Origin: Convolutriloba macropyga
Taxonomy: Eukaryota
Reading direction: 5' to 3'
Length of the DNA stretch: 64,000 nt
Assembly (NCBI RefSeq): GCF_964194025.1
Contig: NC_134469.1
Location: 43,772,001 to 43,836,000 of the forward strand
The notes below the pieces were generated by a model. That model made no database searches. It was not told the DNA's origin and saw only the letters and a program-made list of their open reading frames with translations. How positions within the stretch are numbered: the stretch's first letter is position 1; each line of letters begins with the position of its first letter. A program made the position numbers and the translations under genes. Below, piece after piece: positions 14,112-62,265 of this stretch.

Positions 14112-15414
14112 GTTTCTGGACGTTGATCTGAGGTCTTTGGTCAGCTTGAAAATGTTCTTTCAGTGTGAGTCGCATTCAATTTTCTCAATGATTCTTTTAA
14201 TGCCACGAATCAACAACTAAACTTGATTTCCTGCTTCGCAGAATGATTTGTCATATTCAGTAAGATATGCATTTCATCGTTTTTTGTTGCAGCTTATCTC
14301 TTTTTTTTTGCCTCACTGCCAGATCGATATTTTTATAGTTTTTAACTAACTTGATTTCTTGCTTTGCAGAATGATTTGTCATCTTCAATGAGATATTCAT
14401 TTCATCGTTTTTTGTTGCAGCTTATCTCTTTTTTATTGCCTCACTGCCAGATCGATATTTTGTAGTTTTTTCAGGACAACATTTTTCCAAAACAGCCGTT
14501 ATAGCATCAGCTAGGGCTATAATTCAGGTTTAATATTTAGACCAAATTTTGATATTTCAAAGTGCAGATTGTATAGGGCATGAAGATGTGTATCTGTATT
14601 TCTAAAAACTTTGAGGTTACGGGATTTTTTTCGGATTTTGAATGGCCCCTTATGTTCTGGAAATTGTCTTATTTTAAAGCATAATGATCGGTTGCTGTTT
14701 TCTTAATACTTTTGCTCTTATCTAATTTTCACTGCAAATGTATAATCAATGGCGCCACTGGATGAAGCACAAATTCTTGTAGATTGACCATTATTACTGT
14801 GCAAACCATAGGACACAACAATCTTAAACAATTGTCTTCTGTTATTACAATATCTATCATCATAATTTATTTAGCTCAATTTGTGTAAATATAAATGAAC
14901 AGACACTGTTTAACTAATAGAGAGACTGTTCTTCTCCTATTGTGTGTAGTTTTGATTTGTAATAATTCAGCAAATACAATAAAGTTCTTGTTTCCGTTTC
15001 ATATTCTCATGTTGAAAGGTTTTTAGCGAACTTGTGACTTAAATTAGAACAGTAAAACACTGTCTATGATAGAAACAATCTATGATCAACATTTTTGTCT
15101 TACAGACTGGCAAAATTAAAACCGAAGTAGTTTAGTGTTTTCTTAAGTAGTTTAGTAAATGACTGCTTAAAAGTATTGTGCAACTGTAACCCACCCCCCC
15201 TCCCTTGGTGAAAAACTTTTTTGTATAACCTAATTTATACGTCTAGCTATTATAATACATAATGTGATGAAAATGTAAAAATAAGTTAATAAGTTACGTT
15301 AAAACAATAAATTAACAGAGTTGACCATGTACCAACTGTGTGAGAGGAAACAGTTTGGGATAAATGATGGCCACTTTGCGTGCTTAATTTGGTTGTTGGG
15401 TCTGTTGTGTTTAG

Positions 15415-15592
15415 AGACAGGAGCTGGATGTTTGTGTCTGCATTCATGGTGACCGGGCTGGTGATTGGAGTGTGTGTGGTTCTGATGTTGTGTCTCACAG
15501 TGAAGTACTCACTCCAACAGAAGAGAGCATCAGCTGCCAAGGCTCAGAAGAAGAAAATGATTGAGGAGTATGCCTTCATCAAAGAAAAGACT
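15415..15592 (+). CDS. Probable internal exon encoding a single transmembrane helix plus basic juxtamembrane segment (copy 1)
   Basis: Acceptor tgtgtttag|, donor ACT|gttagc. WMFVSAFMVTGLVIGVCVVLMLCLTV is followed by KYSLQQKRASAAKAQKKK. Differences between copies are synonymous. Confidence 0.6.
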
Positions 15593-16870
15593 GTTAGCAT
15601 TTTTGGTTGCTGACCAATTCCTAATTTTTACTTCCAGCTTCCCAAGCTGCTCGGGTCCAGCTGTCACACGTAAATATGGGGAAAATGTTGTAAAAAAATA
15701 GCATTGAGAGTTTGAGCAGTAGTTACTCTTCATCCCCTCTTTATTCCTGTTATTTTTGCGCGGCAATGCTCTACCCGGTTGAGACTCTGGCTCAAAACTA
15801 GTCATAATAAGACGCACCCAAACGTTACCCCATGTTGTAACCGAGTTACTGTTCCGAACCCACTTTAGTGCGGAGAGGAAATATATACTCAAACGTGGTT
15901 TTTTTATTCCGTCAATTTTGGCCGATCGATGCATTCATCTTAATTAAAAAGATTTTTTGAAATTCGTTTTCTCGGAGGAATTATCGAGGTTTAACTTTTA
16001 TGGATACTAGGCCGATTTCCCTTGTTTTCATTTTTCCGTAATTGTTTAACCAAAGCTTCGACAATTTGTAAACATGTCAACAACAGTGTTACTGGTTTTA
16101 AATTGAAAGATTTAGGAGGGTTGCTGAAAGGCTTCTTCTGAATTTTTTGAGAAATTTTTGCTAATTTTTTCAAATTTCAGGCATTTTTGTCAGTTTTTAT
16201 TGTGAAGTACAATTTCTTTTCTAAGAAGGTTTATTTTCAACTAATGGTTTCTTGGCTTTGATACTACAAGTTTCCAAAAAACGTTGTGGTCTCTGCACGT
16301 TTGCCCAGTTTTGAGGTTCAGTTTTGTTTGCTTGATATAATATCACGTTTTTGACAGACCCAATCGACGTTTAAAGATTGCGCACGGGAACTTATTTTTA
16401 ATTTTTGTTGATTTGTAATAATTCAGCAAATACAATAAAGTTCTTGTTTCCGTTTCATATTCTCATGTTGAAAGGTTTTTAGCGAACTTGTGACTTAAAT
16501 TAGAACAGTAAAACACTGTCTATGATAGAAACAATCTATGATCAACATTTTTGTCTTACAGACTGGCAAAATTAAAACCGAAGTAGTTTAGTGTTTTCTT
16601 AAGTAGTTTAGTAAATGACTGCTTAAAAGTATTGTGCAACTGTAACCCACCCCCCCTCCCTTGGTGAAAAACTTTTTTGTATAACCTAATTTATACGTCT
16701 AGCTATTATAATACATAATGTGATGAAAATGTAAAAATAAGTTAATAAGTTACGTTAAAACAATAAATTAACAGAGTTGACCATGTACCAACTGTGTGAG
16801 AGGAAACAGTTTGGGATAAATGATGGCCACTTTGCGTGCTTAATTTGGTTGTTGGGTCTGTTGTGTTTAG

Positions 16871-17048
16871 AGACAGGAGCTGGATGTTTGTGTCTGCATT
16901 CATGGTGACCGGGCTGGTGATTGGAGTGTGTGTGGTTCTGATGCTGTGTCTCACAGTGAAGTACTCACTCCAACAGAAGAGAGCATCAGCTGCCAAGGCT
17001 CAGAAGAAGAAAATGATTGAGGAGTATGCCTTCATCAAAGAAAAGACT
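16871..17048 (+). CDS. Transmembrane exon, copy 2
   Basis: Same protein sequence and splice sites as copy 1. Confidence 0.55.
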
Positions 17049-18330
17049 GTTAGCATTTTTGGTTGCTGACCAATTCCCAATTTTTATTTCCAGCTTCCCA
17101 AGCTGCTCGGTTCCAGCTGTCACACGTAAATATGGGGAAAATGTTGTAAAAAAATAGCATTGAGAGTTTGAACAGTAGTTACTCTTCATCCCCTCTTTAT
17201 TCCTGTTATTTTTGCGCGGCAATGCTCTACCCGGTTGAGACTCTGGCTCAAAACTATTCATAATAAGACGCACCCAAACGTTACCCCATGTTGTAACCGA
17301 GTTACTGTTCCGAACCCACTTTAGTGCGGAGAGGAAATATATACTCAAACGTGGTTTTTTTATTCCGTCAATTTTGGCCGATCGATGCATTCATCTTAAT
17401 TAAAAAGATTTTTTGAAATTCGTTTTCTCGGAGGAATTATCGAGGTTTAACTTTTATGGATACTAGGCCGATTTCCCTTGTTTTCATTTTTCCGTAATTG
17501 TTTAACCAAAGCTTCGACAATTTGTAAACATGTCAACAACAGTGTTACTGGTTTTAAATTGAAATATTTAGGAGGGTTGCTGAAAGGCTTCTTCTGAATT
17601 TTTTGAGAAATTTTTGCTAATTTTTTCAAATTTCAGGCATTTTTGTCAGTTTTTATTGTGAAGTACAATTTGTTTTCTAAGAAGGTTTATTTTCAACTAA
17701 TGGTTTCTTGGCTTTGATACTACAAGTTTCCAAAAAACGTTGTGGTCTCTGCACGTTTGCCCAGTTTTGAGGTTCAGTTTTGTTTGCTTGATATAATATC
17801 ACGTTTTTGACAGACCCAATCGACGTTTAAAGATTGCGCACGGGAACTTATTTTTAATTTTTGTTGATTTGTAATAATTCAGCAAATACAATAAAGTTCT
17901 TGTTTCCGTTTCATATTCTCATGTTGAAAGGTGTTTAGCGAAATTGTGACTTAAAATAGAACAGTAAAACACTGTCTATGATAGAAACAATCTATGATCA
18001 ACATTTTTGTCTTACAGACTGGCAAAATTAAAACCGAAGTAGTTTAGTGTTTTCTTAAGTAGTTTAGTAAATGACTGCTTAAAAGTATTGTGCAACTGTA
18101 ACCCACCCCCCCCCCCCCTCTTGGTGAAAAACTTTTTTGTATAACCTAATTTGTACGTCTAGCTATTATAATACATAATGTGATGAAAATGTAAAAATAA
18201 GTTAATAAGTTACGTTAAAACAATAAATTAACAGATTTGACCATGTACCAACTGTGTGAGAGGAAACGGTTTGGGATAAATGATGGCCACTTTGCGTGCT
18301 TAATTTGGTTGTTGGGTCTGTTGTGTTTAG

Positions 18331-18508
18331 AGACAGGAGCTGGATGTTTGTGTCTGCATTCATGGTGACTGGACTGGTGATTGGAGTGTGTGTGGTTCTG
18401 ATGCTGTGTCTCACAGTGAAGTACTCACTCCAACAGAAGAGAGCATCAGCTGCCAAGGCTCAGAAGAAGAAAATGATTGAGGAGTATGCCTTCATCAAAG
18501 AAAAGACT
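18331..18508 (+). CDS. Transmembrane exon, copy 3
   Basis: Same protein sequence and splice sites as copy 1. Confidence 0.55.
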
Positions 18509-21500
18509 GTTAGCATTTTTGGTTGCTGACCAATTCCCAATTTTTACTTCCAGCTTCCCAAGCTGCTCGGGTCCAGCTGTCACACGTAAATATGGGGAAA
18601 ATGTTGTAAAAAAATAGCATTGAGAGTTTGAGCAGTAGTTACTCTTCATCCCCTCTTTATTCCTGTTATTTTTGCGCGGCAATGCTCTACCCGGTTGAGA
18701 CTCTGGCTCAAAACTATTCATAATAAGACGCACCCAAACGTTACCCCATGTTGTAACCGAGTTACTGTTCCGAACCCACTTTAGTGCGGAGAGGAAATAT
18801 ATACTCAAACGTGGTTTTTTTATTCCGTCAATTTTGGCCGATCGATGCATTCATCTTAATTAAAAAGATTTTTTGAAATTCGTTTTCTCGGAGGAATTAT
18901 CGAGGTTTAACTTTTATGGATACTAGGCCGATTTCCCTTGCTTTCATTTTTCCGTAATTGTTTAACCAAAGCTTCGACAATTTGTAAACATGTCAACAAC
19001 AGTGTTACTGGTTTTAAATTGAAAGATTTAGGAGGGTTGCTGAAAGGCTTCTTCTGAATTTTTTGAGAAATTTTTGCTAATTTTTTCAAATTTCAGGCAT
19101 TTTTGTCAGTTTTTATTGTGAAGTACAATTTCTTTTCTAAGAAGGTTTAATTTCAACTAATGGTTTCTTGGCTTTGATACTACAAGTTTCCAAAAAACGT
19201 TGTGGTCTCTGCACGTTTGCCCAGTTTTGAGGTTCAGTTTTGTTTGCTTGATATAATATCACGTTTTTGACAGACCCAATCGACGTTTAAAGATTGCGCA
19301 CGGGAACTTAGTTTTAATTTTTGTTGATTTTTTTTTGGTTTTGTCGGCTGCGACATCGGTTTATAGTTTAGCAGAGTTTTGTTTAATTTTTTATCAGTAT
19401 TGATCGTCGTTTTTAGTTATTCAATAAACTCCTGATAATAAAAATTCTCAAAATTTTTCCCTTTATGGATGAACGAACCAGTTCATGGATTTCAGTTTAC
19501 AGCTTAATGCCTAAATGACTTTCAGATTAAATAATTTCAAAAAACGAAAGGATTTTTGAACCCACAATTTTTTGTTCTTCATTTTGTCATCATGTACTTT
19601 AGTCTCATTTTCGACAAGTCTTATCATTTTTTGCTGAAGGGTTTAACAGTTATCTAATGTTTATTTGTTGTTGTTATATGGTTTATAATAACGCTTCATT
19701 TTATTGGTTTCAATAATGCAGTTTCGCAAAATTGTTTGTAAAACTTTGAGTTCTGTCCGTAATTGTTTTCTTGAAGCAATATGAGTTAGTCTAGCTGGCT
19801 AATAACAAGCCCAATTTGTTTCCTATGAAGTTGCAAGATGATCCGTTATTATTTTTGATTGAAAATGCATGGCTGTTACGATTTGCAAAAATTTATTAAA
19901 AATCAATGAATTTTTGAACTTTGTCACTTTTTATTTTACCTCTCTCAATATGTAGCTTATATATGTAAAGTCATATTGCATCCCTTTCTAAAGAGCCGAA
20001 ATTCAATTTCTATAAGTATTTTGTTTTCAAGTAATGATTTGTTGGCTTTGATGCTATATAATTTTATTCATTTTCTGGTTATCTGCTCAATTTGGGGTTG
20101 TTTTTTTTGTTTCTTTGCCACAGTATCCTTCTAAATAGCTTTTTGAAAGAAAACGAATGCGCAATTAGGCCAATTTGATGTTTCCAATGTTTTCCTTATT
20201 GTATTAACTACTTCAACATCGTTTTCTTGTTCAATAAATTTTTAATTTGACTGACTTTCTCGGTCTTTTTGTAGTCGCATAACATTTTATGAATAATGAT
20301 TTGCCTCAATTGCTTCCTGAAAAAATAAATGAAGAGATCTTAATTACTTCCTCATTTATACCTCGAGGAAAAGTGATCCTTTTTGAATTGATACAGTTGA
20401 TACCTAATGGTTTAATCGCTTAGAAAGTACTTCTTTTCAAAAATGAAAACTTATTTTTAACTTTGCTTTTCTGCCGTTTCGTCGAATTGTTACAGAGTCT
20501 CGTTTGGGCCAGGTTCCGTGACTTTTGTTTAGGTTTTATTTGATGCCATTTTTTTGTTATTTGTTTTCTTTTAAATATAAACATCAACTTTTGGGTGTAA
20601 TTAATGTTTGTTGTTACATGAAATTCACGTTTGGCTTGTCTCGTATTCTCGTGAATGACAGGTATCATCGGTCATCTCATCATCGGTCGGCAATGGTTTA
20701 TCCATATAATGATGTGCTGAACAATATGTATATTTTTGAAAGTTTTCTATCCTTTCCTCAATGGGTAGACAATTAAGTCAAAAATTTGGATGAGCGGGGT
20801 CGGAACTTTAGGTTCAAACGCACATTACCATGCCGTCTTGTTTATCTTTTACTTTACTTGTTACTACTAAAATTACCTATCTACCGCAAGTTGCGAATTT
20901 TCTTAGCGTAAACATAATCAGACGGATCAGTCAATACCGTGCCATAATCAGACATTGACTCATTCATGAACAATACATAGTACATGATTAGCAGATACTT
21001 CTTTTAAGTCCAACCGATGGATTTTGAATCGGCCTTATAAGAGCTCACCATATACCATCCCCGGTTCATAGATAAATGATTCATCCTGGATAAGCGCCTG
21101 AAGGTGGGTCCCTTTTAAAATAGTGTCGTTTACCTTACAAGAAATGCGAGATTAGCCGCACAATAAAATTGAGCTTAAATCTTTTCATGGAACGTTTGAT
21201 CGAGTCAAACAAGTTGTTTTCATACCACTTTATCATGACTTTCTGGGATTTTCGATCTTTGATACCAATTTGAATGGTATCGTTTTGGTAAAGAAATAAT
21301 TCACTTTTTATTTCAGGGAATCCTCAGATTCGTGGAAGTTTTTAACGCTCAAGGTGTTAACCTTTAAACGATAAAGTATATTCCACCATAAAGAATAAAA
21401 TGTATATTCCACATTCCTCTAAGACATTCCACTCCGCTTTGCTTTCATTGAGTTTTTGTAACAAAACAATTTTTTTAGGTAAATATTTGGTTTATAAACA

Positions 21501-21647: not shown

Positions 21648-23234
21648 ACCCGGGTCGAGGAATTCGTCAAAAATTATCTAAGAAATGCGCTGTTAACCGC
21701 TGAAAAAAAAAATTTTCAGCCGGTAAATCTTACACATTAATCCGCTTAATATGCTGATTTTTCAGCACTTTCTTTCAGAATTTCAGCACTTTTCAGCACA
21801 TTAAGCGGATAATTATGTAAGATCTAACTGCTGAAATATAATTTTTCAGCGGCTGTCAGGCAATTTTTTACATAACTTTCAGGACTTATGTTACACAATA
21901 TCAGCACTTATCTTATGCATTTTCAAAGGTTTCCTTGCACAAGTTGAAACTTTTTGAGTTGTTCTTCCTGCTGTACATTCAGAGGAAGCAACTGCGCAAG
22001 ACTAAAAAGCATTGCACTAGGGCAGTTCAACTTAAAAACAGTTGGATATCTGCCAAAAGAATTAAGAACTTTGTCAAACCTTAAGATGAAGCAGTTATTG
22101 CAGCTGAGGTATGAAACCAAATTACTTTATTGAATGAAACCAGGTAGCTTAAGTATAATTATCTTCCTTCCGCTACAAATGATGAAAGTGTGACGTTTTT
22201 CACTCGGTCTGTTTTTCAAAAAAATGAATTTTCATTTTTAAAAAAAACCCGCAGAGTTTTTATTGATTAGTGGCTCTTCATAAGTGCAAAAGTTGAAGGA
22301 ACCTACATGCTGACTACGTTATAAGCAATAGTGAGCAAAAGAAATTGCGTGTAAAATTATGTAAGAAAGGCGCTGAATCCGCAGAATTTCATATTTTCAC
22401 AAGTACTGAAATTATGCAAGGAAGGCGCTGAATCCGCTGATTTTAAAATTTTCACAAGTGCTGAAATTATGTAAGAAAGGCACTGAATCCGCTGAATTTA
22501 CAATTTTCACAAGTACTGAAATTATGTAAGAAAGGCGCTGAATCCGCTGATTTTAAAATTTTCACAAGTGCTGAAATTATGTAAGAAAGGCGCTGAATCC
22601 GCAGAATTTCAAATTTTCAAAAGTACTGAAATTAAGTAAGAAAGGCGCCGAATCCACTGATTTTAAAATTTTCACAAGTGCTGATATTATGTAAGAAAGG
22701 CGCTGAATCCGCTGAATTTAAAATTTTCACACGTGCTGAACTTATGTAAGAAGGGTGCTGATTCAAATGCTGATTTTATGCAAGAGATGTGCTGAAATGT
22801 GTTTAAAATTTTTTTTTCAGCGGATTCAGCACCTTTTTATCGATTTTCAGCGCAATCAGCACAAACCAAACATGATTGCAACACATTCAGCGGATTTCTT
22901 ACAAAAATCTCTGCTTACAGTTGCTGACCCCTCGAACCGGGAAAGATTAAATGGTTCGAAATTAAGGAATCGGTGTCAAAAAGCGTTTAAATCCACTCCT
23001 AAATAATTTTAAGAAATGCACTTGAAACTCAAATACATTTCTAACAAAATTTCAGTGCATTTCATTGCAAAATTATGTAAGATTTTTGCGCTGAAAAATT
23101 TGAAAAATCAGCGCGTTTCAGCTCATTCGAGCGCATTTCAGCGCATTCAACTCATTTCTTACATAATTTTAGCACATTCACCACACTTCTTACAAAATAA
23201 TGCGCTTAAACGGCGCTGACATCTCGACTCGGGT
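21648..23234. mobile_element. Non-autonomous DNA transposon-like element with 12-bp TIRs and an internal minisatellite
   Basis: acccgggtcgag at 21648 and ctcgactcgggt ending at 23234 (11/12 inverted match). Related termini at ~5652 and ~62795. No clear TSD. Confidence 0.65.
22356..22751. repeat. 55-bp minisatellite, about 7 copies
   Basis: Unit attatgtaagaaaggcgctgaatccgctgattttaaaattttcacaagtgctgaa. Confidence 0.93.
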
Positions 23235-27284: not shown

Positions 27285-27336
27285 TCGTAGACATTATCAA
27301 ATTTCACATGCATAGGAAATTTGATAATGTCTACGA
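27285..27336. repeat. Perfect 21-bp inverted repeat with 10-nt spacer
   Basis: tcgtagacattatcaaatttc ... gaaatttgataatgtctacga. Confidence 0.9.
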
Positions 27337-28788: not shown

Positions 28789-30649
28789 ACTAAGTTCTTA
28801 GAATCTGTTCTTAGAAACATAAAATTGGATCTGTTTTGCCTTTTCGGTTTCAATTTTGTGTCAATTTGTCGATATAATGAATAGCATAAATCGATAAAAC
28901 CATATCATGTGTAAACCTCTAAGCTACTGAGTTTAATCACGCAAAAATTGCATATCATTCATAGATTAAATTTAATTTTCCCGGAGTATATAGGCATGCT
29001 ACACACTGTCACATCAAAAGTTTTCGCGTACTCCCCAATGGCAAGACGCGGTTCGACCCCGATTCATTCGATCCCACGAACTTTTCATTCAAAAACCCTT
29101 CACTTAAACCTACATATCCTTGTTGAAAATCAATTGTTGAAAATCAATTGCTCAAATTGAAAATCAATTGCTAAAATCATATTTAGAATTACATGGAAAA
29201 CCAGAATCGGAGTGAAGTGTTAAACGGATTAATTAACCGGTGTGAAATGATATGATAAAATGGTGAAACTAATTGGGACGGTATTATTGCGGATTCTTTG
29301 ATTGAAACAGTAAAAATTGATATCTGTGAAACCCAAAGAATAAACAAAATTGCATCAATGTCGCCTCCTTTAGAAAAATGTGTCCTTATTTGGGATTCCA
29401 TGTCCTTGTTGACTTCCGCACTCACGCACAACAATGTTTGTTGTCGAATTGCAGTCCCTTCGATTTCCAATTCTTCTCAACCATATTCGCTGTTCTGTAT
29501 CCTGCTCGCCCAAATTATGTTGCATTTCCTCTATATATGTGCACTCCTGGTAATCCTCGTATTTCAGGGTACAGAAACATCTATTAGAATCTGATAGAAG
29601 TCTCGACAAACATGTTTAACCAAATCTGATAGAAATCTCGACAAATATTTTAACCAGTGTATGGAAAATATTTCCGCAGCCCAAAAGTTAAGAGAACATT
29701 GTTTCGCACATCCCAGTAGTTAAAAGTTAAGTTTACGATTCTTTAAATGCAATATTTTCTGAGGCTCACAACAATCCAATCCTGCTGTACACCAAATTGC
29801 CTAAAGTTGCATGCAACAAAAACTTACTTTGAGCAAATTACATAGATAACAATTCTACAAAAACAGTGATGTAGTGGAACATAATGCCCGTATATACGCC
29901 TGTACAAAATGGCGTACGTCTGTACATTTCAAACCAAATCAGAAGGGAAAACCATGGCTACATGAGTTTCTCAATTTTCAATCTTGACACTACATATCTG
30001 ACTTGAAGAATATTAAAATGTCATGAGAAATGAAGAACTCTGATAAATTGAAGTTTCAAGTGTCCTTGAGGTTACAAAAAAAATTTTCTTGTTTTTGTGT
30101 AATTTTCCTGCTAAATACTTTTGCACCCTTAGTGGTTTATCAACAATTATAACTTATAGCAGCTTTAAGAAATCTAAAAAACAAGCGTAAAAAATACGGA
30201 ACATCTCAACTGAAACCTTCTCCAGATTAGGAACTCGGTGGCTCCGACCCCTTGTCTCCGATCTAAGATCTTCACGCTTCTAATACCTTTCTTGGGCTGC
30301 TGAGCTCACTCTTCCTAGTCCAGAAGACCGAAGAGAAACAGCATAAGAAAATGACAGTATGGTCGGTTCGGAATAACAAAAAATTTTGGTATCTTCGTTT
30401 TCGCAGGATTTGAAAAGTGCGGTTTTGAAACGCATGAAACCTTCATGATAGCGTTCTATCTGACGGTATTTCAAACTCTCAGAGAAAAATTCTGAAAGAA
30501 TGTGCAAGTTGAGAACTTTTTTAACTCATTAAAGAAGTATAATATTGTTGTGGGTTCTTAAATTCAAAAATGTATCATACTTGATCAAAATTTATGTGAA
30601 GTATGTTCATCAATTCCAATTAACGGAATTTGATTTGCTTTATTGTGTT

Positions 30650-32480
30650 TTGATGCCTAACATACCGACGGTTACTGACGTTTAAAACTAAACATTTCAA
30701 CGATTTCTTATCCTTGAAATGGAACATACCGACGGCTTCTTACGTCTGAAACCGAACATAACAGACGTTTGAAACGGAACTTTCCGACGGTTATTGATGT
30801 TCGAAACCGAACGTACCAGCGGTTTTTATCTTTGAAATGGAAATTACCGACGGTTTCTTCATTTGAAACCTAACAAAACAAGGGTTTCTTATCTTTGAGT
30901 CTGAGCTTACCGACGGCTACTTTCAATTGAAACCTAACATGCCAACAATTGCTTACCTTTGAAACGGACTTTATCGACAATTACTTACGTTTGAAACTGA
31001 ACAGATAAACAATTTTTCACATTTGAAACGAACTTGCCAACGGTTATTGACTTTTGAAACCTAACTTACTATCGGCTTCTTACGATTGAAAACGAACATA
31101 CCAATGGTTCCTTACGTTTGAAACGGAATTTGCCAATGGTTATTGACGTTTGAAATCAAACATACCAGCGGTTTCTTATCTTTAAAATGGAACTTAAGGA
31201 CGATTTCTTACATTTGAAACCTAACACACCAACGGCTTCATACGTTTGATGCGGAACTTACCGACCGACAGATATTGACATTTGAAACCAATCATATCAA
31301 CGGTTTCTTATCTTTGAAACGGAACTCACCGACAGTTTCTTACCATTGAAAACTAACATACCAACAATTGCTTACCTTTGAAACGGACTACAACGACAAT
31401 TTTCTACGTTTGAAACCAAAAATACAAACGTATTCTTATTTTTGAAGTCAAACATACCAACGATTTTTTAATTTTGAAACGGAACTTAACGACGGTTTCT
31501 TACGTTTAGAACCAAACAAACCAGTGGTTTTTTACGTTTGAAACCAAACATATCAGCTGTTTCATACGTTTGAACCGAACCTACCCTCGTTTTCTTACGT
31601 TTGAGGCCAAACATAACAGCGTTTTATACGTTTGAAACCCAAATAATCACGGAATTTTATTTGTTTCATTGTGAATGGAAGCTTATCAAACCGATGATTA
31701 TTGACGTTAAAAAGTGAACATATCAATAATTTTCTTAAATTTGAAGGGGATTATACCAATAGTTTCTTACGTTTAAAACAAGACATAACAGCGGTTTTCT
31801 ATCTTTGAAACAAAGCTTACCGACGGTTTCTTACATTTGAAACCGAACATAACAACGGTTTCTTATCTTTGAAAAGGAATTTAACGACGGTTTCTTACGA
31901 TTGAAATTTAACACAACATTATTTGATTACCTTTGAGACGGACTTTATCGACAATTTCTTACGTTTGAAACTGAACATTTAAACAAATTTTCACATTTTA
32001 AACGGAACTTACCGACGGTTATTGACTTTTGAAACCTATAATTCCAACGTTTTCTTACGTTTGAAGCCGAACTTACCGACAGTTATTGTTGTTTGAAACC
32101 AAAGAATCTAAGGGTTTCTTATCTTTGAAACGGAACTTACTGACGTTTTATTATATTTGAAACCTAACATACCATCGTTTTCTTATCTTTAAGTCCGAAT
32201 TTACCGACCGCTGCTTTCGATTGAAACCTAACATGCCAACAATTGTTTAACTTTGAATCGGACTTTATCGACAATTTCAATTTCTTCCGTTTGAAACTAA
32301 ACATATAAACAATTTTTCACATTTGAAACGGAATTATCGGACGGCTTCTTGCGTTTGAAAACGATCATACCAACGGTTCCTTGCGTTTGAAACGGAATTT
32401 GCCAATGATTATTGACGTTTGAAACCTAACATACCAACGGTTGCTTACGTTTGAAACCAAACAAAGCGGTAAAATTGTAT
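30650..32480. repeat. Degenerate ~30-32 bp minisatellite array
   Basis: Consensus tttgaaac(c/g)gaac(a/t)taccgacggtttcttacg repeated over ~1.8 kb. A short related tract lies on the opposite strand near 3340-3490. Confidence 0.92.
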
Positions 32481-34324: not shown

Positions 34325-35339
34325 TAATTTACTGGAAAAAAACACTAGCAAATGACAGATTTTAAGGCATAATAACGTTTAATACTCCACTACTAATGGA
34401 GCTCTGCTGACTAAATAAGTAAAGTCTTCGGAGGGTAGACACTACAGTAGAGCCACAACAACATGTTCAGCAAATTTTCCTTATTTGTTTACTCAACGCC
34501 CAAATGGATTTTTTTAGGATTTGTAAACATACTTAGTTAGTGTCAATTGAAAATCAGTTACGACCTACTTGACCATCCCATATCAATTTCGCCACGTATG
34601 CACAATTTAGGAGATCATCTTAAATATTTCACCATGATCTTTGCGATCGATTTTTTTAAACTATTCCCTAACATACAAGTTAATCTCAAAAAATGATGTT
34701 TAAAACATATATTTTACATTCTGTTGATAAATTAACCTCCAGTCAGTCAAAGATTTTTGGTAACCTATAAAACGCATAACTTGCAGTAAAAACAAACGCT
34801 GAAAAATTATAAAAAAACTGAGCTGAAACTTAAAATGTGGCCTTACTAGAGTGACAGACGGTGCGTATACAGGCGCAATTCACCATTGAGCGGTCAAATT
34901 GTTGCATTGTATTCGTTCTAACAAAAGTAATCAGTGATTGTACAGCTTGCCTAACATTGAAATCTCAGCGGGAAAAGAACTTTGATATACAGAAATTCCT
35001 TGCTGTCAAAATATTCCCGAAGAAGGGGAAACTTTGTGCAATTTCCAGAGTAAATTCCTCCAAGTGACCAAAGCAAAACCAAGAGAGAGACTTGTAATAT
35101 TACAGCTAAGGAAATGAATTTTTTAAAAGTGTTTTCTATACCTAACGAGTACTTTTTGTAACCTTTGAATTGAAAAACCGTAATTTGCGTAACTATAGCA
35201 ATTTTTCAATTGCACATTTTGGTTGGGAAAGGAACTCTAATATTCGAATTTCGTGGTATTGTTATTTTTAGAAGTCAATAAGTTGGTCAGCGGAGCTGTA
35301 ATTCTACTGGTTGAGACTAGCTAAACATCAAGTATGGCA

Positions 35340-35470
35340 AGTAATTGTAAAATGTGGATCCCAGCGCACCCTCGCATTCGCTCAACGTTCGCTGGGATGC
35401 CACATTTTACAATTACTCTACACACATTAAAATTTCGATCGAATAGCTCATTTTTGAGTAATTTCACATT
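35340..35470 (+). repeat. Left terminal inverted repeat (131 bp)
   Basis: Reverse complement of 50826-50958, apart from a few differences in the hairpin loop and T-runs. Confidence 0.95.
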
Positions 35471-35746
35471 CACTAAATTTTCACTGTGTTAGTCAAATTT
35501 ATAATTACTTTATACATAGTAAATTTTGATCAAATAGCTCATTTTGATTAATTTTTTATATTCACTCAATTTTTTGCTTGAGATCCACATTTTTGCAATT
35601 ATATATTTTAAAAATTGATTAAATAACTCATTTTTTGATGAATTTTTAAAATATCGCCAAAACATTAGATTTGAATTAATTTTAACATATTTGATCAACA
35701 TTCAATATATGAAAAATTATTTTTTGAAAATTTCGAAATAAAAATA

Positions 35747-38700
35747 ATGGATATATTTTGTGAAACTTGTAACAGAGAGTTCAAAACTAATAAAACACTT
35801 CATAAACATTACTCGAGTAAAATACATAAGGATAAAGTGGAAAAACATCAAAATCAAGATATGATGAATAAATTAGATGAATATATCAAGACATTACCCA
35901 ATGATATTACTACTTGTTTTAATAATTCTGTTATACAAATAAGTTCAATTCGCAATAAAGATGATGGATATAAAGATAACTTTGAAGATATTCTTGATAA
36001 CATAACATCTTTTACTCATAATCCAATAAAAATATATTTATCCGAAGAAATTGAATATAAAAAAGGAGAAACAAAGTTTATTATGGGACATACTACTATT
36101 CCACAAGTTTACACAGCAGGTATTTATTTATCACATTTGAATAAAATAGAAAAATTATTAAATGAGGCAGAATTAAGAGAATCAGGTTGGATGATTCGAA
36201 GGAGAATATCACGAACATTACATATTTCGTATTATAATTCAGCTGGTGGATCGTATATAGAATTACCTTTCAAATCACCATATATTATTAATGTTAAGAA
36301 TATGGATGATGATATGTGTATAATTTGGAGTTTATTAGCATATATGTTTCCAGCAACAAAGGATAAACAAAGAATATCTAAATATTTAGATCATCTTAAT
36401 TCAATTATTTTACCATCCTTTGATTTTCCATATAATTATAATGATATAAAAAAGTTACACAAATTGAATAATGTAGATTTTAATATATTTGAGATTGATG
36501 AAGATAAAAGAATTAAAGGAATAATATTTAGATCTCATAATAATTATAAGGGTTGTAATCTTTTATTATATAAAAATCACTATGTTTTATGTACTAATAT
36601 ATCCACTATAATTAGAAATTCAAATAGAATGTCATATCCATGTTTAAATTGTCTAACAAGCTACTCATCAGAACAAATATTAGAAAATCATAAAATAATG
36701 TGTGAAGATCATAAAGCAGTAAAAATTACCTATTCGCATAATGATTACCATCAGTTTGATAAATGGTGTTACAAAAACAGAGTTCATTTTACAATGTATT
36801 GTGATATTGAAAGTTTTAACACTAAAGTAAACACACAAAAACCATTCTGTTATAATCTTATAATTAAATCTAGTTATCCTGATCTAATGGAAGAACATGA
36901 AGTTACTTATATGGGTAAAGATTGTGGTGAACATTTAGCCAACACAATAATAAAATATGAGGATAAATTTAAAAAACTACTGAATGAAAACATTGTAATG
37001 AATGATGAATCAGTTACTGGAGAACCTAATATTTGTTTCTATTGTAATAAAAAATTAGGTGAAGACATAGTAAGAGATCATGACCACTTTAATGGTAAAT
37101 TCAGAGGATATGCTCATAATATATGTAATTTAAATGCTAAGAAACCTAATTTTGTTCCAGTATGCTTTTATAATGGATCAAAATATGACATACATCTTTT
37201 CATTAAAGAATTAGCTATAACAAAGTTGAAGATGAAAGCATTAGCTAAAACAGAAGAAGAGTTCTTTTCTTTAAATATAGGATGTATTAGAATATTAGAT
37301 GCATTTAGATTTTTTACACCACTAAGTTTAGATGTGGTAGCAAAAACATTAGGTGGAGAACAAAGAAAAGGATTTTATCCTTATGACTGGATTGATGAAA
37401 AATGGGAAGAAAGATGAATTCAACTGAGTTTCCTCCACAAGAAACATTCTATTCTAAACTAAAGCAAGAGGGAATATCAGATGAGGATTATCTTAATGCT
37501 AAAAAAAATTTGACAATGATTGTAAAACTTTTGCAGATTATACAATTATGTATCTAAAACAAGATGTAAAATTACTAGCAAAGGTATTTGAAAAATTTAG
37601 AGATAAACGTATAGATGAATATAAAATAGATCCATGTTATAGATATTCATCACCAGGTTTATCATGGATATGTGGATCAAAGTTTACAGAACAAAGATTA
37701 AAACATTACCAAAAAGATACATATGATATATTACTCATGATTGAAAAAGGAATAAGAGGTGGTATTGCATCAATACTTGGTGATAGATATGTTAAACCTT
37801 GGAATAGATATACACAACCAGAAAATTATGAAATAAATAAATTATGCAAGTTATTGGATGACATGGACTTTGACCCATTGCATAGCATGGCCTTTGACTC
37901 AAATAAAGCACAAGAAGGCTATCTATTATATTATGATTTTAACTCATTATATCCATCAAGTATGGTAGAAGAACTACCTATAGGTGAATTTATTAAATGT
38001 AATGACCTACCTTACGAAACTACTAAAGATGGAGACTTTGGTGTAATATATGAAATAAATATTAAATATTCCAATGACCTTAAACAGAAAACAGAAGTCT
38101 TCCCTTATTTTCCAGAAAATTCAAAACCATATACTGAAGAATTTACTAATTATCAAGAAGTAAACAAACCCAATAAATACAAACCATTAGAGAAATTAAT
38201 GCTTACATTACATGATAAAAATAACTATGTTATAGAAGGAAGAATGCTTAATTGGTATTTAAACAATGGTGTTAATTTAGAAGATATAACAATTATCAAA
38301 AAAAATCAAATATGAGAAAAGTAAATGGTTAAAACCATATATAGAGTATAATGTAAAGAAAAGAGATGAAGCAAAAGCTTATAATGATAAATTTGGTGAA
38401 ATGTTTTATAAATTAATGAGTAACTCATTCTATGGTAAAACATTAGAAAATGTAAGAAATAGACAAGATGTAGAAATTGTAAATAAATTAGATAGATGCA
38501 AACAACTAGTAGGTAAAGCAACATATAAATCAACATCAATATTTTCTAATAATCTTGTTGCTATACACAATTATAGAAGTGTAGTTAAACAAGATAAATT
38601 TAATTATATAGGATTTGTAATATTAGAACTTAGTAAACTTAAGATTTATGAATTTGTGTATAATGTATTGAAACCAATATATAATAATAATTTCAGCTTA

Positions 38701-39117
38701 TGTTACATGGACACTGATAGCTTACACATACATCTAAAAGATGACCCAAACAAAATGAAAGAATACATAGGAAGTAAATTAGGACAAATGAAAGACGAGT
38801 TAAAAAACGAATACATAACAGAGGCTATATTTTTAGCACCAAAAGTATACTATTTTGAAACAACAAAAGAACAAACTCTTAAAGCAAAAGTTGTAACCAA
38901 ACCATCTCAAAAACATCAACTAAACAGAGATGATTATTATAATGCATTGTTTAACAATGAAAACAAATATGTTGAACAATTTAAATTAAGATCAATTAAA
39001 CATGATATGAATATTGTAAATGAAAAAAAGCTTGCATTATCACCATTTGATGATAAAAGAATTGTAGATGGTGTAAAAACTAAACCGTATGGTTGGTTCG
39101 AATACCTAATACTATAA
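35747..39117 (+). pseudogene. pPolB: Protein-primed family B DNA polymerase with three 1-nt frameshifts
   Basis: N-terminal C2H2 finger; OTU-like NMDDDMCIIWSLLA...HYVL; ExoI YCDIES; EndoVII/HNH insert CFYC...RDHDHFNGKFRGYAHNICN; ExoII NGSKYD; ExoIII YLKQDV; GIRGG; motif A DFNSLYPS, B KLMSNSFYGK, C YMDTDS. Frames join at ~37410, ~37501-37508 and ~38298-38305. Confidence 0.95.
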
Positions 39118-39124
39118 TAATTTA

Positions 39125-39421
39125 TAAAAACTAAATATAGAACTAAATATAAAACTAAATATAAAACTAAGTAATTTTTATGATAAAAGGTTTTACGTAA
39201 ATAACATTAAAAGCTATCCTCACGATGAGAATCTATATCTATTCAAAAGAGATCTAGTAAATAAAATCTGTGAAGCATATTTAAACTTAAATCCACGAAG
39301 CGGTTTCACCAATAAAGACCTGTGAAACAGCTTCGCTGATAAATAATATTAAAGAGCTAACCATTAATGATGATAGAAAGTTAATCCTTGCTGCAATTAC
39401 ACTATATAATGATTTATTATA
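39125..39421 (+). pseudogene. Short disrupted ORF starting with a PolB C-terminus-like motif
   Basis: KLSNFYDKRFYVNNIKSYPHDENLYLFKRDLVNKICEAYL..., then after a frameshift LINNIKELTINDDRKLILAAITLYNDLL*. No ATG. Confidence 0.35.
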
Positions 39422-39431
39422 ATTATAAAAA

Positions 39432-40370
39432 ATGACTAAATTAGATAAACTTATAGAATTAAACAATCTAGAAAAACAAAACAGAAGAAATAGATTAGAC
39501 GATAAATTAAAACAACAAGAGTATTATGGTGAAATAGAAGAGTTATTTGCTCCTTTAACTAAAACACTAAATGCAAACAATGAACAGAATCTAGCAGTAA
39601 GTGAACAAACATTAAGAGCAATAGATTGGCAAAATCAAGAGTTAGATAAACAAACTAAGATGATCAGTGAAACTGCTTCGCAGATTGGTGAAACTGCTTC
39701 GCAGATCGATCAAGCTGGTTACCAGTTTAATGAAACTGCTTCCAAGATGGGTGAAACGTTAAAGGGGACTCAAGAAATAGCACCAGTTTTTGTTGATACA
39801 AAGATAGCCAAGAATCTTCATAAAATGGGTACTCAAACTAATCCTCAATTAAAATTAAATCTTGTAGATTTGCCTACTAAAAGATACAAAATGAATGGTG
39901 TTGATATAACCCTAGAGCAGGGTGCATTTTTAGTTAGGGATAATATATACGAATTCTCAGAAGGATTTATTGAATTTCTCACTAACCCAAATGTAACATA
40001 TAACGATGATATCGAAGAAGATGAAAACAAAATTAAAAGGTTTTTAAAGGATATTAGATATGATTTAGGAAAAGGGGATAAGAAAAGCGCTAGATATAGA
40101 ACAATAAAACGTATAATGGAAGTAAGAGATGATATATTTGGCAGAGGGTTAAATACCAACCAACAAAGTTGCCACCACTACGTGGATCAGGGAACCTGCT
40201 TTGCAGATCCAAATAATTTAGTAGAAAAATTAGAATTATTAATACTAGAAACGAAAGCTGGTCATGACGGATTATATGATGAAATGCTAGATATATCTAA
40301 GCAACTATTATCTATGAATGTTATTAATCAAGAACAACTAGATAATTTTGTTTTTAACTATGATAAATAA
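39432..40370 (+). CDS. Conserved Polinton accessory/core protein (coiled-coil N-terminus, C-terminal DPN.LV..L.LL motif), 312 aa
   Basis: C-terminal DPNNLVEKLELLILETKAGHDGLYDEMLDI resembles a motif I recognise from animal Polinton proteins. Candidate protease site IFGRG. Confidence 0.8.
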   Translation: MTKLDKLIELNNLEKQNRRNRLDDKLKQQEYYGEIEELFAPLTKTLNANNEQNLAVSEQTLRAIDWQNQELDKQTKMISETASQIGETASQIDQAGYQFNETASKMGETLKGTQEIAPVFVDTKIAKNLHKMGTQTNPQLKLNLVDLPTKRYKMNGVDITLEQGAFLVRDNIYEFSEGFIEFLTNPNVTYNDDIEEDENKIKRFLKDIRYDLGKGDKKSARYRTIKRIMEVRDDIFGRGLNTNQQSCHHYVDQGTCFADPNNLVEKLELLILETKAGHDGLYDEMLDISKQLLSMNVINQEQLDNFVFNYDK

Positions 40371-40394
40371 AGGGTAAACCTGACTACGCGCATA

Positions 40395-49128: not shown

Positions 49129-49878
49129 ATGGTTATAAAATGTTTAGAGTGTAACTATAAATGTGGAAACATTGCTTGTTTAAAATATCATTACGAATCA
49201 TGTCATAAAGATAAAATTGATAAATGTATATGTCGTAATATAACAATAAGTGCTATTTGTGCTAATGATTTTTCTCCATGGGGTTGTTCTTTAAAAAATG
49301 AATCTAGTTCTGGTTCTGGTTCTAGCTCTAACTCTAGTTCTGGTTCTGGTTCTGATTCTAGTTATAACTCTAGTTCTAACTCAGACCCTAACCCTAACTC
49401 TAACTCAGTCCCTAACCTTAACCCTAACCCTAATCCTAACCCTAACTATAACTCAGAAGTATTAATCAGTGAAGGGGACGAAGTCCTTAGTACCCCAACT
49501 GCCCCGCAGATCAGAAATTGTAATAAATGTAATTATATAAAACCACTAACTGATTTTGATGAGAGTAAGTATACATGTAGAAGTTGTACTTCAGCTAAAG
49601 TTAATTGTCCATATTGTGCTTCTATTGTGAGATATGATGGGATACGAGCCCATGTACAGAAACAGCATCCAGGTGTAGAATTAACTAAAGGATTTAGTAG
49701 AAATCTAACTGAAAAACAAAGTTCTAGAACTGAAAGTACTTTAGCCATTAGACAAAATGAAGAAGATTGCTCATGTAAATATTATAATTTTGTATTATTT
49801 CTTATTAATAATGGAATAAATATAGAAAAAGTAAAAGAAAATATAAATTTATTAAAAAGTATAGATAATTTGAAATAA
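49129..49878 (+). CDS. Multi-zinc-finger protein with Ser/Gly and Pro-Asn low-complexity linker, 249 aa
   Basis: CLEC...HYESCH, CNKC..KPLTDF..CRSC, CPYC...HVQKQH. Confidence 0.8.
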   Translation: MVIKCLECNYKCGNIACLKYHYESCHKDKIDKCICRNITISAICANDFSPWGCSLKNESSSGSGSSSNSSSGSGSDSSYNSSSNSDPNPNSNSVPNLNPNPNPNPNYNSEVLISEGDEVLSTPTAPQIRNCNKCNYIKPLTDFDESKYTCRSCTSAKVNCPYCASIVRYDGIRAHVQKQHPGVELTKGFSRNLTEKQSSRTESTLAIRQNEEDCSCKYYNFVLFLINNGINIEKVKENINLLKSIDNLK

Positions 49879-50262
49879 AAGTATAAAAAATATAAAAATT
49901 TATAAAAATTTATAAAAAGAGGGAATCACTCCTTAAGAGTGAAAAAGAGCGATATTTTCTACTGGGGGATAACTCCGAATAAGAGTGAATCGCTCTTAAA
50001 GAGTGAAATGTAAATTTGGCTTTGATTTTTTAACTTTTATCTTATTTTTAATTTAAATTAATTTCTGATTAATTTTTGATCCAATATAGAGAGAATATAG
50101 AGAGAATATTCAAGAAGACATTGAAAAAAAAACACTTATCACTGTGTTTCCACCGATCTCAGTGTTTTTGACTGTATACCCATCACAGTGTGTCCCATAT
50201 ACAGTCTCACAGCAGGGATCATCCTTTTTAAGAACTGTGAATTTGTTTTTTTTGTTTTTTTT

Positions 50263-50423
50263 ATCTCACTTAGTTTCATATTTTTTTTTCATCAGAATCC
50301 TGAAAGGCGGCATCGCCAATCGGGGGACGTTCACTGGAGTCAGTGAGGAAGGAACCCCAAACCTTCCGTTTGCTAAAGCAACTTAACTAGACTCGATGAT
50401 TTAACCACTACGCCAAGTGAGAC
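50263..50423 (-). ncRNA. Candidate Pol III/tRNA-like structured RNA, unit A
   Basis: Starts GTCTCACT-TGGCGTAGTGG (canonical A box); degenerate B box GGTTCCTTCC; stem TCACTG-actc-CAGTGA; possible terminal pairing with CTAAGTGAGAT. Confidence 0.4.
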
Positions 50424-50550
50424 AGGAAGTTTTAGTTTTAGATTGGTTAAATATTGATTAGGGGAATATATGAAAATTTTAATTATTTTAATATTTTCAT
50501 TTTTTTGTTCAAGTTTTTTCGCAATTTGGTTTTACGTGCTTCTTAGTTTT

Positions 50551-50665
50551 ATACTAGTACTGGGATACGTCCACCGGAGTCGGTGGGGATAGAACCCGAA
50601 CTCTCCGTCTGATAATGGTTAATTACCAGCTTAACTCTGTACTAGTGGTTTGCACTAAGTGAGAC
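50551..50665 (-). ncRNA. Candidate Pol III/tRNA-like structured RNA, unit B (paralog of A)
   Basis: Starts GTCTCACTTAG; B-box-like GGTTCTATCCC; stem CCACCG-actc-CGGTGG; closing stem ACTAGTAC/GTACTAGT. Confidence 0.4.
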
Positions 50666-50825
50666 AAGAAAGGATAGTTTTTAATTGTATAAGAAGTGAA
50701 TATAGAGTGAATATACAGTAGTAGATAAAACAGGGAAACCAGCAAGCAGTAAAATTTGTTCCTACTCGACATGCGCGATTAGCGTTAGGAGAAAAGGAAC
50801 AAATTTTAGGTGGTGGCTGGTTTCC

Positions 50826-50958
50826 AATGTGAAATTACTCAAAAAATGAGCTATTCGATCAAAATTTTAATGTGTGTAGAGTAATTGTAAAATGTGGCAT
50901 CCCAGCGAACGTTGAGCGAACGTTGAGGGTGCGCTGGGATCCACATTTTACAATTACT
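50826..50958 (-). repeat. Right terminal inverted repeat (133 bp)
   Basis: Reverse complement of 35340-35470. Confidence 0.95.
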
Positions 50959-50964
50959 ATGGCA

Positions 50965-62065: not shown

Positions 62066-62265
62066 NNNNNNNNNNNNNNNNNNNNNNNNNNNNNNNNNNN
62101 NNNNNNNNNNNNNNNNNNNNNNNNNNNNNNNNNNNNNNNNNNNNNNNNNNNNNNNNNNNNNNNNNNNNNNNNNNNNNNNNNNNNNNNNNNNNNNNNNNNN
62201 NNNNNNNNNNNNNNNNNNNNNNNNNNNNNNNNNNNNNNNNNNNNNNNNNNNNNNNNNNNNNNNNN
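62066..62265. other. Assembly gap (200 N)
   Basis: Run of N. Confidence 1.

Follow-up and report, generated by a model that had tools for sequence, protein, structure and literature searches.

One-base bulges in the terminal fold-backs of a Convolutriloba macropyga Polinton and its relatives

Terminal palindromes with unpaired bases, which occur as flip and flop isomers, are features of AAV-type rolling hairpins and of poxvirus telomeres. At the left end of MVM, according to the available text of PMC1185569, the sequence of the asymmetric base is unimportant, the addition of one more nucleotide inactivates the origin, and one arm of the duplex palindrome is active and the other is not. In the TP-capped telomeres of Streptomyces, the 3' single strand folds back via terminal palindromes, for both priming and end repair (PMC5449611, accessible part). 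Terminal hairpins are already known in the supergroup considered here, because a July 2026 preprint (10.64898/2026.07.28.741278) reports, in its accessible part, terminal palindromes for Halocafeteria seosinensis virophages (subtypes 1, 2, 5, and 6) and for PLV subtype 4; the words bulge, mismatch, and flip are absent from its main text. The same preprint (10.64898/2026.07.28.741278) draws, in the part available, the standard Polinton model, which relies on the annealing of the two TIRs. Terminal hairpins or palindromes have no occurrence in the main text of PMC8097293 and PMC10748475, and in PMC11161782 they appear in one reference title only. The accessible parts of PMC11296320, 10.64898/2026.10.13.758929, PMC6431247, PMC4061559, and 10.1101/2022.07.28.501842 describe no terminal hairpin in Polintons; PMC4061559 states that bidnavirus ITRs do not form hairpins, and the hairpins named in the available text of 10.1101/2022.05.25.493380 are protein β-hairpins. 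We found no published report of hairpins in Polintons with a TP and a protein-primed DNA polymerase (pPolB), or of a conserved bulge, and older subscription papers or Repbase reports may mention such ends.

The window, which is the whole 64-kb stretch of C. macropyga DNA that we analyzed, contains a Polinton of 15.6 kb (35340-50958) with TIRs of ~132 bp and a 6-bp TSD. Because the same hexamer, ATGGCA, flanks both outer ends (35334..35339 and 50959..50964, identical copies), the outer arms of the terminal hairpins are the true termini. The left TIR (131 bp, 35340..35470, + strand) and the right TIR (133 bp, 50826..50958, - strand) are 96% identical over 133 columns. They differ at five positions, none in the 55 stem bases, three in the loop, and two in the tail, numbers that are too small for significance. 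The terminus reads AGTAAT, one base off the (AGT)2 motif that is complete in three related loci (L034, L002, and L013); for vertebrate Polintons, the end motif is listed as (AG)3 or (AGT)2 in the available text of PMC8097293. Comparison of the left TIR with a phage collection by blastn gave no match.

We scanned 14 open reading frames of the element against Pfam; three had no match, and several had only weak ones. The pPolB gene (35747..39117, + strand) contains three frame changes and encodes, in this order, a C2H2 finger, a terminal-protein domain (with Ser146), a vOTU (Cys191/His278), an exonuclease with an EndoVII-like insert, and the palm. It is followed by an rve integrase in an open frame (40395..41270, + strand; PF00665 E 9e-6, below the curated cut-off), a double jelly-roll MCP (43321..44565, - strand; PF21738 E 1e-21), and a probable minor capsid protein (44767..45465, + strand), which has no Pfam match and is labeled from its position; its homologs adjoin the MCP in L038 and L065. 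A protease-like N-terminal part, which we take to be such from its motif, shares one frame with an A32-like packaging ATPase (45567..47078, - strand; ATPase PF04665 E 5e-4). DUF5679 was also found among the scanned frames. With its pPolB, rve integrase, double jelly-roll MCP, and A32-like packaging ATPase between TIRs and a 6-bp TSD, the element is a Polinton, and it resembles Polintons/Mavericks (adintoviruses) in gene set, TIRs, 6-bp TSD, AG..CT ends, and the presence of TP and vOTU, as these are described in the accessible parts of PMC11161782, PMC8097293, PMC8502044, and PMC10748475. The MCP has 476 homologs, with 75-96% identity among the 120 matches listed; this number suggests a large family.

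Several further features of the element and its surroundings were recorded. Within the 45567-48976 region, a long Asn-Asp repeat joins the protease-like region to the packaging ATPase in their common frame, and a second P-loop ATPase, split and on the opposite strand, lies at 47397-48976 with a Gln-Asp/Asn repeat. A motif of ~21-26 bp, its core resembling GCTTCGCAGAT, has 18 occurrences over both strands, all of them inside the element (39276-49000) and many in frame within open reading frames; it may be a protein-binding site or a small selfish insertion. A second, imperfect hairpin of 92 nt (50734-50825) directly adjoins the right TIR on its inner side; its + strand RNA has a folding energy of -45.9 kcal/mol (z -8.3), G-U pairs included, versus a weaker -38 for the - strand, and the fold resembles a pre-miRNA or a terminator, without an Rfam match. 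Near the right end, two diverged copies ~240 bp apart (50315-50435 and 50555-50675) contain on the - strand a stretch that we take to be B-box-like; ARAGORN and Rfam found nothing in them, and their folding was not above that of shuffles (z 0.0 and -1.5). Over the whole window, the Rfam scan gave no match and ARAGORN no gene. The host DNA contains three tandem units of ~1456 bp that are 99% identical (14952-19330), each with a 134-codon open reading frame without a Pfam match, as well as tandem arrays with periods of 32 bp (30623-32463), 375 bp (12542-13709), and 55 bp (22354-22778). A run of 200 N occupies 62066-62265.

Folding confirmed that both ends of the Polinton are real fold-backs of 27 bp with one extra inner-arm base after base pair 18. 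At the left end (35340-35417, 78 nt), the outer arm (35340..35366, + strand) is the true terminus and consists of an 18-bp terminal segment and an adjoining 9-bp box. It pairs with an inner arm (35390..35417, + strand), an inverted copy of the terminus with an unpaired G at 35399, across a 23-nt loop (35367..35389, + strand) that contains three of the five TIR differences. This hairpin folds as DNA at -27.2 kcal/mol (z -9.8). The right end (50880..50958, 79 nt, - strand) has the same stem, with the inner arm at 50880-50907, the extra base at 50898, an outer arm that ends at the terminus, and a 24-nt loop with a duplicated 11-mer; it folds at -31.7 kcal/mol (z -11.8). For each end, none of 200 shuffles was as stable, and across the four strands of both ends the z-scores range from -9.8 to -11.8. 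The original prediction had described these two hairpins, the inverted inner copy of the terminus within each TIR, and the common orientation of the two bulges; its description was exact. Hairpins as such are not rare here, since nine in the window score at least 19, one of them with a perfect 21-bp arm (27285-27336), so the telling fact is the position at TSD-defined ends. The terminal 3' base is predicted to pair with the inner arm on both strands (P 0.94). The long-range panhandle of the two TIRs is far more stable, at -152.5 kcal/mol versus -29.6 and -34.6 for the two local folds.

The left end also carries a degenerate ~90-bp tandem array (35372..35740, + strand; self-blastn 67% over 292 columns, E 4e-28). 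Its unit 1 contains the inner arm, and units 2 and 3 contain decayed inner-arm copies. The array is found at the left end only, and the left TIR ends just past unit 1.

As in the Halocafeteria elements (10.64898/2026.07.28.741278, accessible part), the palindrome occupies the TIR extremity adjoining the TSD in an integrated polinton-like element. In contrast to those palindromes, which in the available text go mostly with non-pPolB replicases, the one described here is found on a Polinton with pPolB, TP, and vOTU (10.64898/2026.07.28.741278). The sizes also differ, with 52 nt in the example given in that part of the preprint (10.64898/2026.07.28.741278) and 78-159 nt for the units of the window Polinton and its relatives.

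The relatives come from a contig scan with an eight-protein alignment, which yielded 134 candidate stretches, of which 83 were confirmed and 80 kept, giving 78 loci (L001-L078) selected by a related pPolB. These loci sit in dozens of prokaryotic MAG records, one of which holds about a dozen, and most likely represent eukaryotic or viral DNA that was carried over in binning; several carry integrase, ATPase, or capsid genes. For 47 of the 78 loci, we inspected at most 1.5 kb on the upstream side of the polymerase; 31 loci were left out, most of them since their contigs do not include this stretch. A complete hairpin of the same type was found in five of the 47 (L005, 9350-9508; L034, 5614-5742; L055, 2544-2647; L074, 9333-9457; and L075, 2065-2206), at 67 to a few hundred bases before the polymerase gene, and two more contigs (L015 and L016) start inside such a hairpin. 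In the window and at all seven hairpin loci, which were chosen by pPolB, the hairpin lies directly upstream of this gene. L063 has a different, longer hairpin, and most of the remaining 39 loci need not include an end. The presumed ends of the relatives were assigned from the end motif, their position, and the lack of shared sequence in the 1 kb outside; just outside the presumed end of L005 lies an RT fragment.

The original prediction had asked whether the hairpin is universal and named relatives lacking the inner arm as evidence against it. The structure is kept at the seven related loci, in two other pPolB branches, and it is not universal, as the inner arm is absent from the presumed ends of L013, L023, and perhaps L002, where an N gap lies in the region. 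L013 is 69% identical to the hairpin-bearing L075. A midpoint-rooted FastTree tree without topology test, with 67 rows (56 loci, the window, and 10 proteins), left out 22 loci for their short matches, among them L055, which is 69-74% identical to L005. In this tree, hairpin ends fall in three branches including that of the window, with 27-35% polymerase identity between branches, and L013 is nested among hairpin-bearing elements.

Some candidate ends were set aside. The AGTAGT of L065/L012 lies inside a shared repeat and gives no clean end, and the hairpins of L038, L042, L056, L063, L073, and L076, as well as that at 8013-8180 of L005, have no end motif or lie off the boundary and were kept as controls. 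The ends of L005, L055, L074, and L075 start with (AC)n, while their close relatives L013 and L002 have (AGT)2; the end motif is able to change inside a single polymerase clade. Just inside the hairpin, a CACGTCAG motif followed by an A-run is present in L034 (5800-5830), L015 (125-150), and L016; we presume that this motif resembles an ATF/CREB site.

The bulge is a single extra base that lies on the inner arm in nine of nine ends (eight elements), and its identity is G, A, or C. It follows base pair 19 in L005, L034, L055, L075, L015, and L016, base pair 18 in the window, and base pair 26 in L074. We compared 28 hairpins scoring at least 19 from all loci and the window and found that the first gap was a 1-nt bulge after base pairs 18-20 in six of seven terminus-type hairpins versus one of 21 others (Fisher p 1e-4; 0.002 when three lineages are counted). 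The arm sequences have diverged, with only 2-9 of 19 positions identical between lineages, while pairing is kept at 26-28 of 28 positions once the bulge is removed. The loops of L034 and L015 align well, yet 9 of the 19 terminal arm positions differ between the two; in L015, the eight visible outer-arm bases pair with its own inner arm (8/8). Pairwise comparison of the outer arms in the group of L005, L055, L074, and L075 shows 45 differences, of which 44 stay paired in both elements. The hairpin is very probably under selection of some kind.

A GTTCTG-like box follows base pairs 19-20 in L005, L055, and L075 and is also present in the hairpin-less L002 and L013. With the box at this position, the bulge lies where two sequence blocks meet, which suggests that the terminal segment and the box form a two-part site with fixed spacing. 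The two-part origin of adenovirus was the inspiration for this idea. CT directly follows the inner arm in four of four AGT-type elements. The possibility that the two bases at this position restore those trimmed by the integrase holds in these four elements and in none of the four ACAC-type elements, so we treat it as only a lead.

As far as the sequence and the structure models show, protein priming has been retained. The window polymerase matches PF03175 (E 4e-11), and its best structural match is the phi29 polymerase (Z 11.8, rmsd 3.0, 136 residues aligned). The structure model covers the N-terminal 556 residues; in a Foldseek search, it gave no match at E <= 0.001. Residues 51-166 were modeled as beta-alpha-beta-beta-alpha-loop-beta (pLDDT 72). 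Among the 10 best structural matches of this domain, seven are Y-family polymerases (Z 5.0-6.3, rmsd 4.4-5.6), including the little-finger region of E. coli Pol IV. This is the fold that the available text of PMC11161782 gives for Polinton TPs, in which the linking residue occupies the loop preceding the final strand. Ser146 lies in this loop, between alpha2 and beta4, and is conserved in 96% of 153 aligned homologs. Because the structural scores are middling, the TP assignment draws on topology, motif, and literature together. Of the vOTU residues, Cys191 is conserved in 99% of 161 homologs and His278 in 98% of 162, and the domain matches a viral OTU (Z 7.0, rmsd 2.6 over 96 residues). The window copy itself is probably inactive, because its polymerase gene has three frame changes and a Tyr where 97% of 165 homologs have His. 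No full-length close homolog of the polymerase was found: 23 matches were among longer proteins, the best-scoring with 32% identity, and close relatives appeared only as fragments. The homologs that carry a name are those of a sponge, a beetle, and an aphid.

The polymerase does contain the EndoVII/HNH-like insert that the original prediction had noted; it matches PF02945 below the curated cut-off (E 1e-3), with its CxxC..DHxH..HxxCN motif intact, and no EndoVII structure is among the best 50 structural matches. The proposed link of this insert to the hairpin was weakened, as it is clade-wide (73 of 85 long polymerase homologs) and also present in L002 and L013 with their presumed hairpin-less ends. 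Because it occurs in elements with and without hairpins, we rejected it as a dedicated hairpin partner; it may nonetheless act on the hairpin structure. The polymerases of L005, L055, L013, L074, and L075 have an extra Cys/His-rich segment inside the zinc-binding part of the EndoVII-like domain. None of the 14 scanned frames had a Pfam match to an HUH (Rep/NS1) nickase.

Our preferred explanation, which we hold tentatively, is that the hairpin is a selected cis-acting part of a protein-primed replication origin, working through snap-back and a spacing switch; we infer its functional steps from structure, conservation, and protein domains. Strand-displacement synthesis from one end would free a single strand, whose 3' end would snap back and rebuild a short duplex origin with native spacing, the extra base being looped out. 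TP-pPolB could then start the second strand at this folded origin before a panhandle forms between TIRs 15 kb apart, and copying of the folded origin would yield an end in one orientation only. Since the panhandle is far more stable, any gain from the local fold would be kinetic. In duplex DNA, whether free genome or provirus, the extra base would displace the box of the inner copy by one position, and the initiation, integration, or excision machinery would then not read this copy as an end. The position of the bulge would be kept and its identity not because an insertion alone disables the duplex inner copy yet leaves both boxes paired. The nearest precedent for such a one-base spacing switch is the MVM left end (PMC1185569, accessible part), and fold-back ends in a TP system have one in Streptomyces (PMC5449611, accessible part). 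The inner arm could also template the repair of a trimmed 3' end, thereby keeping the arms matched. Against this explanation, the bulge follows base pair 26 in L074 and 18 in the window, not 19, and the close relatives L013, L023, and perhaps L002 seem to manage without a hairpin. Moreover, the fold-back puts a 3'-OH on a template, where it could simply be extended, which favors self-priming. We therefore kept rival explanations, given the more stable panhandle, the hairpin-less relatives, and the fact that the fold-back is also a perfect primer-template.

Self-priming and a role of the hairpin in excision had been raised in the original prediction, and both, the former with one-sided resolution, are possible. 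In a self-priming scheme resembling the MVM left end, which we consider rather doubtful, the TP would prime the first strand and the folded 3'-OH the second, giving a closed end and then a dimer junction, of which a nuclease, with the EndoVII-like insert as a candidate, would cut only the correctly spaced arm. The primer-template geometry is perfect (P 0.94), the catalytic-looking EndoVII motif is intact, and the single orientation in nine of nine ends together with an extra base of conserved position and free identity matches the MVM description; hairpin priming has also been proposed for protist virophages and PLVs (10.64898/2026.07.28.741278, accessible part). However, the 14 scanned frames, three without match and several with weak ones, include no HUH/NS1 nickase, EndoVII is present with or without a hairpin, and the TP/vOTU machinery already solves end replication; its retention also weakens the earlier suggestion that hairpin priming replaces protein priming. 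An excision aid is unlikely. Here, the palindrome of the provirus would extrude as a cruciform, or a single strand of it would fold where a host fork passes, the base of the stem coinciding exactly with the boundary between host and element; a junction-cutting nuclease would free the end, and fill-in or TP priming from either diagonal cut would restore the original orientation. This agrees with a stem that directly adjoins the TSD at either end of the element and with the lack of flip/flop, which it predicts, and an inactivated inner copy would be most meaningful in a provirus, where both copies are internal sites. T4 endonuclease VII cuts four-way junctions and bulges, which counts in favor of this scheme, while loops of 23 to ~70 nt disfavor cruciform extrusion. 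The removal of the TP in Polintons, stated as unclear in the available text of PMC11161782, also speaks for it. Weighing against it, hairpin-less relatives carry the same EndoVII-like insert, and the window and 78 loci yielded neither empty sites nor solo units.

It is quite unlikely that the inner arm is an end-repair template only, which would restore bases lost to exonuclease or integrase trimming, with repair stopping at the bulge, since the origin would be spoiled by copying beyond this base. This role, which is compatible with our preferred explanation and has a precedent in palindrome I of Streptomyces (PMC5449611, accessible part), fits arms that evolve together with a loop evolving independently, the most perfect pairing in the distal 18-19 bp, and the CT directly after the inner arm in four of four AGT-type elements. 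It does not fit the four of four ACAC-type ends, where the bases after the inner arm are not conserved, or stems that extend far beyond the bulge (over 70 bp in L005), more than repair would require. That the hairpin is a neutral by-product of recurrent template switching at ends, kept by copying between arms, is very improbable: it would suit the patchy distribution on the tree, the variable hairpin size, and the decayed extra inner-arm copies at the left end, and the Halocafeteria authors, in the available part of their preprint, also allow for accidental annealing (10.64898/2026.07.28.741278), but it neither predicts that one-base bulges in three lineages would lie equally far along the same arm nor explains why the bulge survived while neighboring positions were homogenized. 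Scarcely credible are, finally, flip/flop transfer of the AAV/poxvirus type, the integrase-mobilized 78-bp mini-element that had been suggested earlier, and an assembly artefact. Each unit has an end motif at either side, and flopped ends could escape notice if integration were limited to ends with the correct spacing. Yet zero of nine ends are flopped (p ~0.008 for eight elements if orientations are independent), no solo unit exists in the window or the 78 loci, a small sample, and the unit length varies between 78 and 159 nt; we rejected both transfer and mini-element. The differing loops and the decayed copies at the left end argue against an artefact and for some age of the structure, and these observations, together with the TSD and the independent assemblies, exclude it.

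Among known systems, the MVM left end is similar in its one-nucleotide asymmetry of free identity and its single orientation (PMC1185569, accessible part). MVM differs in being a ssDNA virus that uses the HUH nickase NS1 and a host cofactor (PMC1185569, accessible part), whereas the present element is a dsDNA, integrating, TP-pPolB element. Unlike the MVM left-end telomere, moreover, the two ends of the window Polinton are alike, and a role of its bulge is suggested by analogy. In contrast to AAV and poxvirus ends, the nine ends show no flip/flop isomers, which selection at integration could hide. Streptomyces telomeres differ in their internal replication start, several short palindromes, unrelated Tap/Tpg, and, in the available text of PMC5449611, no conserved bulge described.

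The fold-back has been kept across lineages with ~30% polymerase identity, which argues against terminal hairpins being a property of elements without protein priming, lost in their past. For annotators, it offers a structural marker of true ends, and the contigs that break inside the hairpin (L015 and L016) suggest why such ends can be missed. The element further provides three natural substrates, the outer duplex end, the inner duplex copy, and the folded end, that are directly comparable with an intact polymerase. A combined arrangement, in which the TP starts the first strand and the bulged fold-back is a one-base switch limiting EndoVII-like cutting to the outer arm, appears doubtful; if true, one reaction would release the provirus at the host border and resolve self-primed dimers into ends of a single orientation. 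Such an end would be a convergent, HUH-free counterpart of the MVM left end and would answer how Polintons excise. Chromosome exit and replication of Polintons have so far been modeled and never shown, and a bulge at a fixed distance from the terminus gives them a concrete cis signal.
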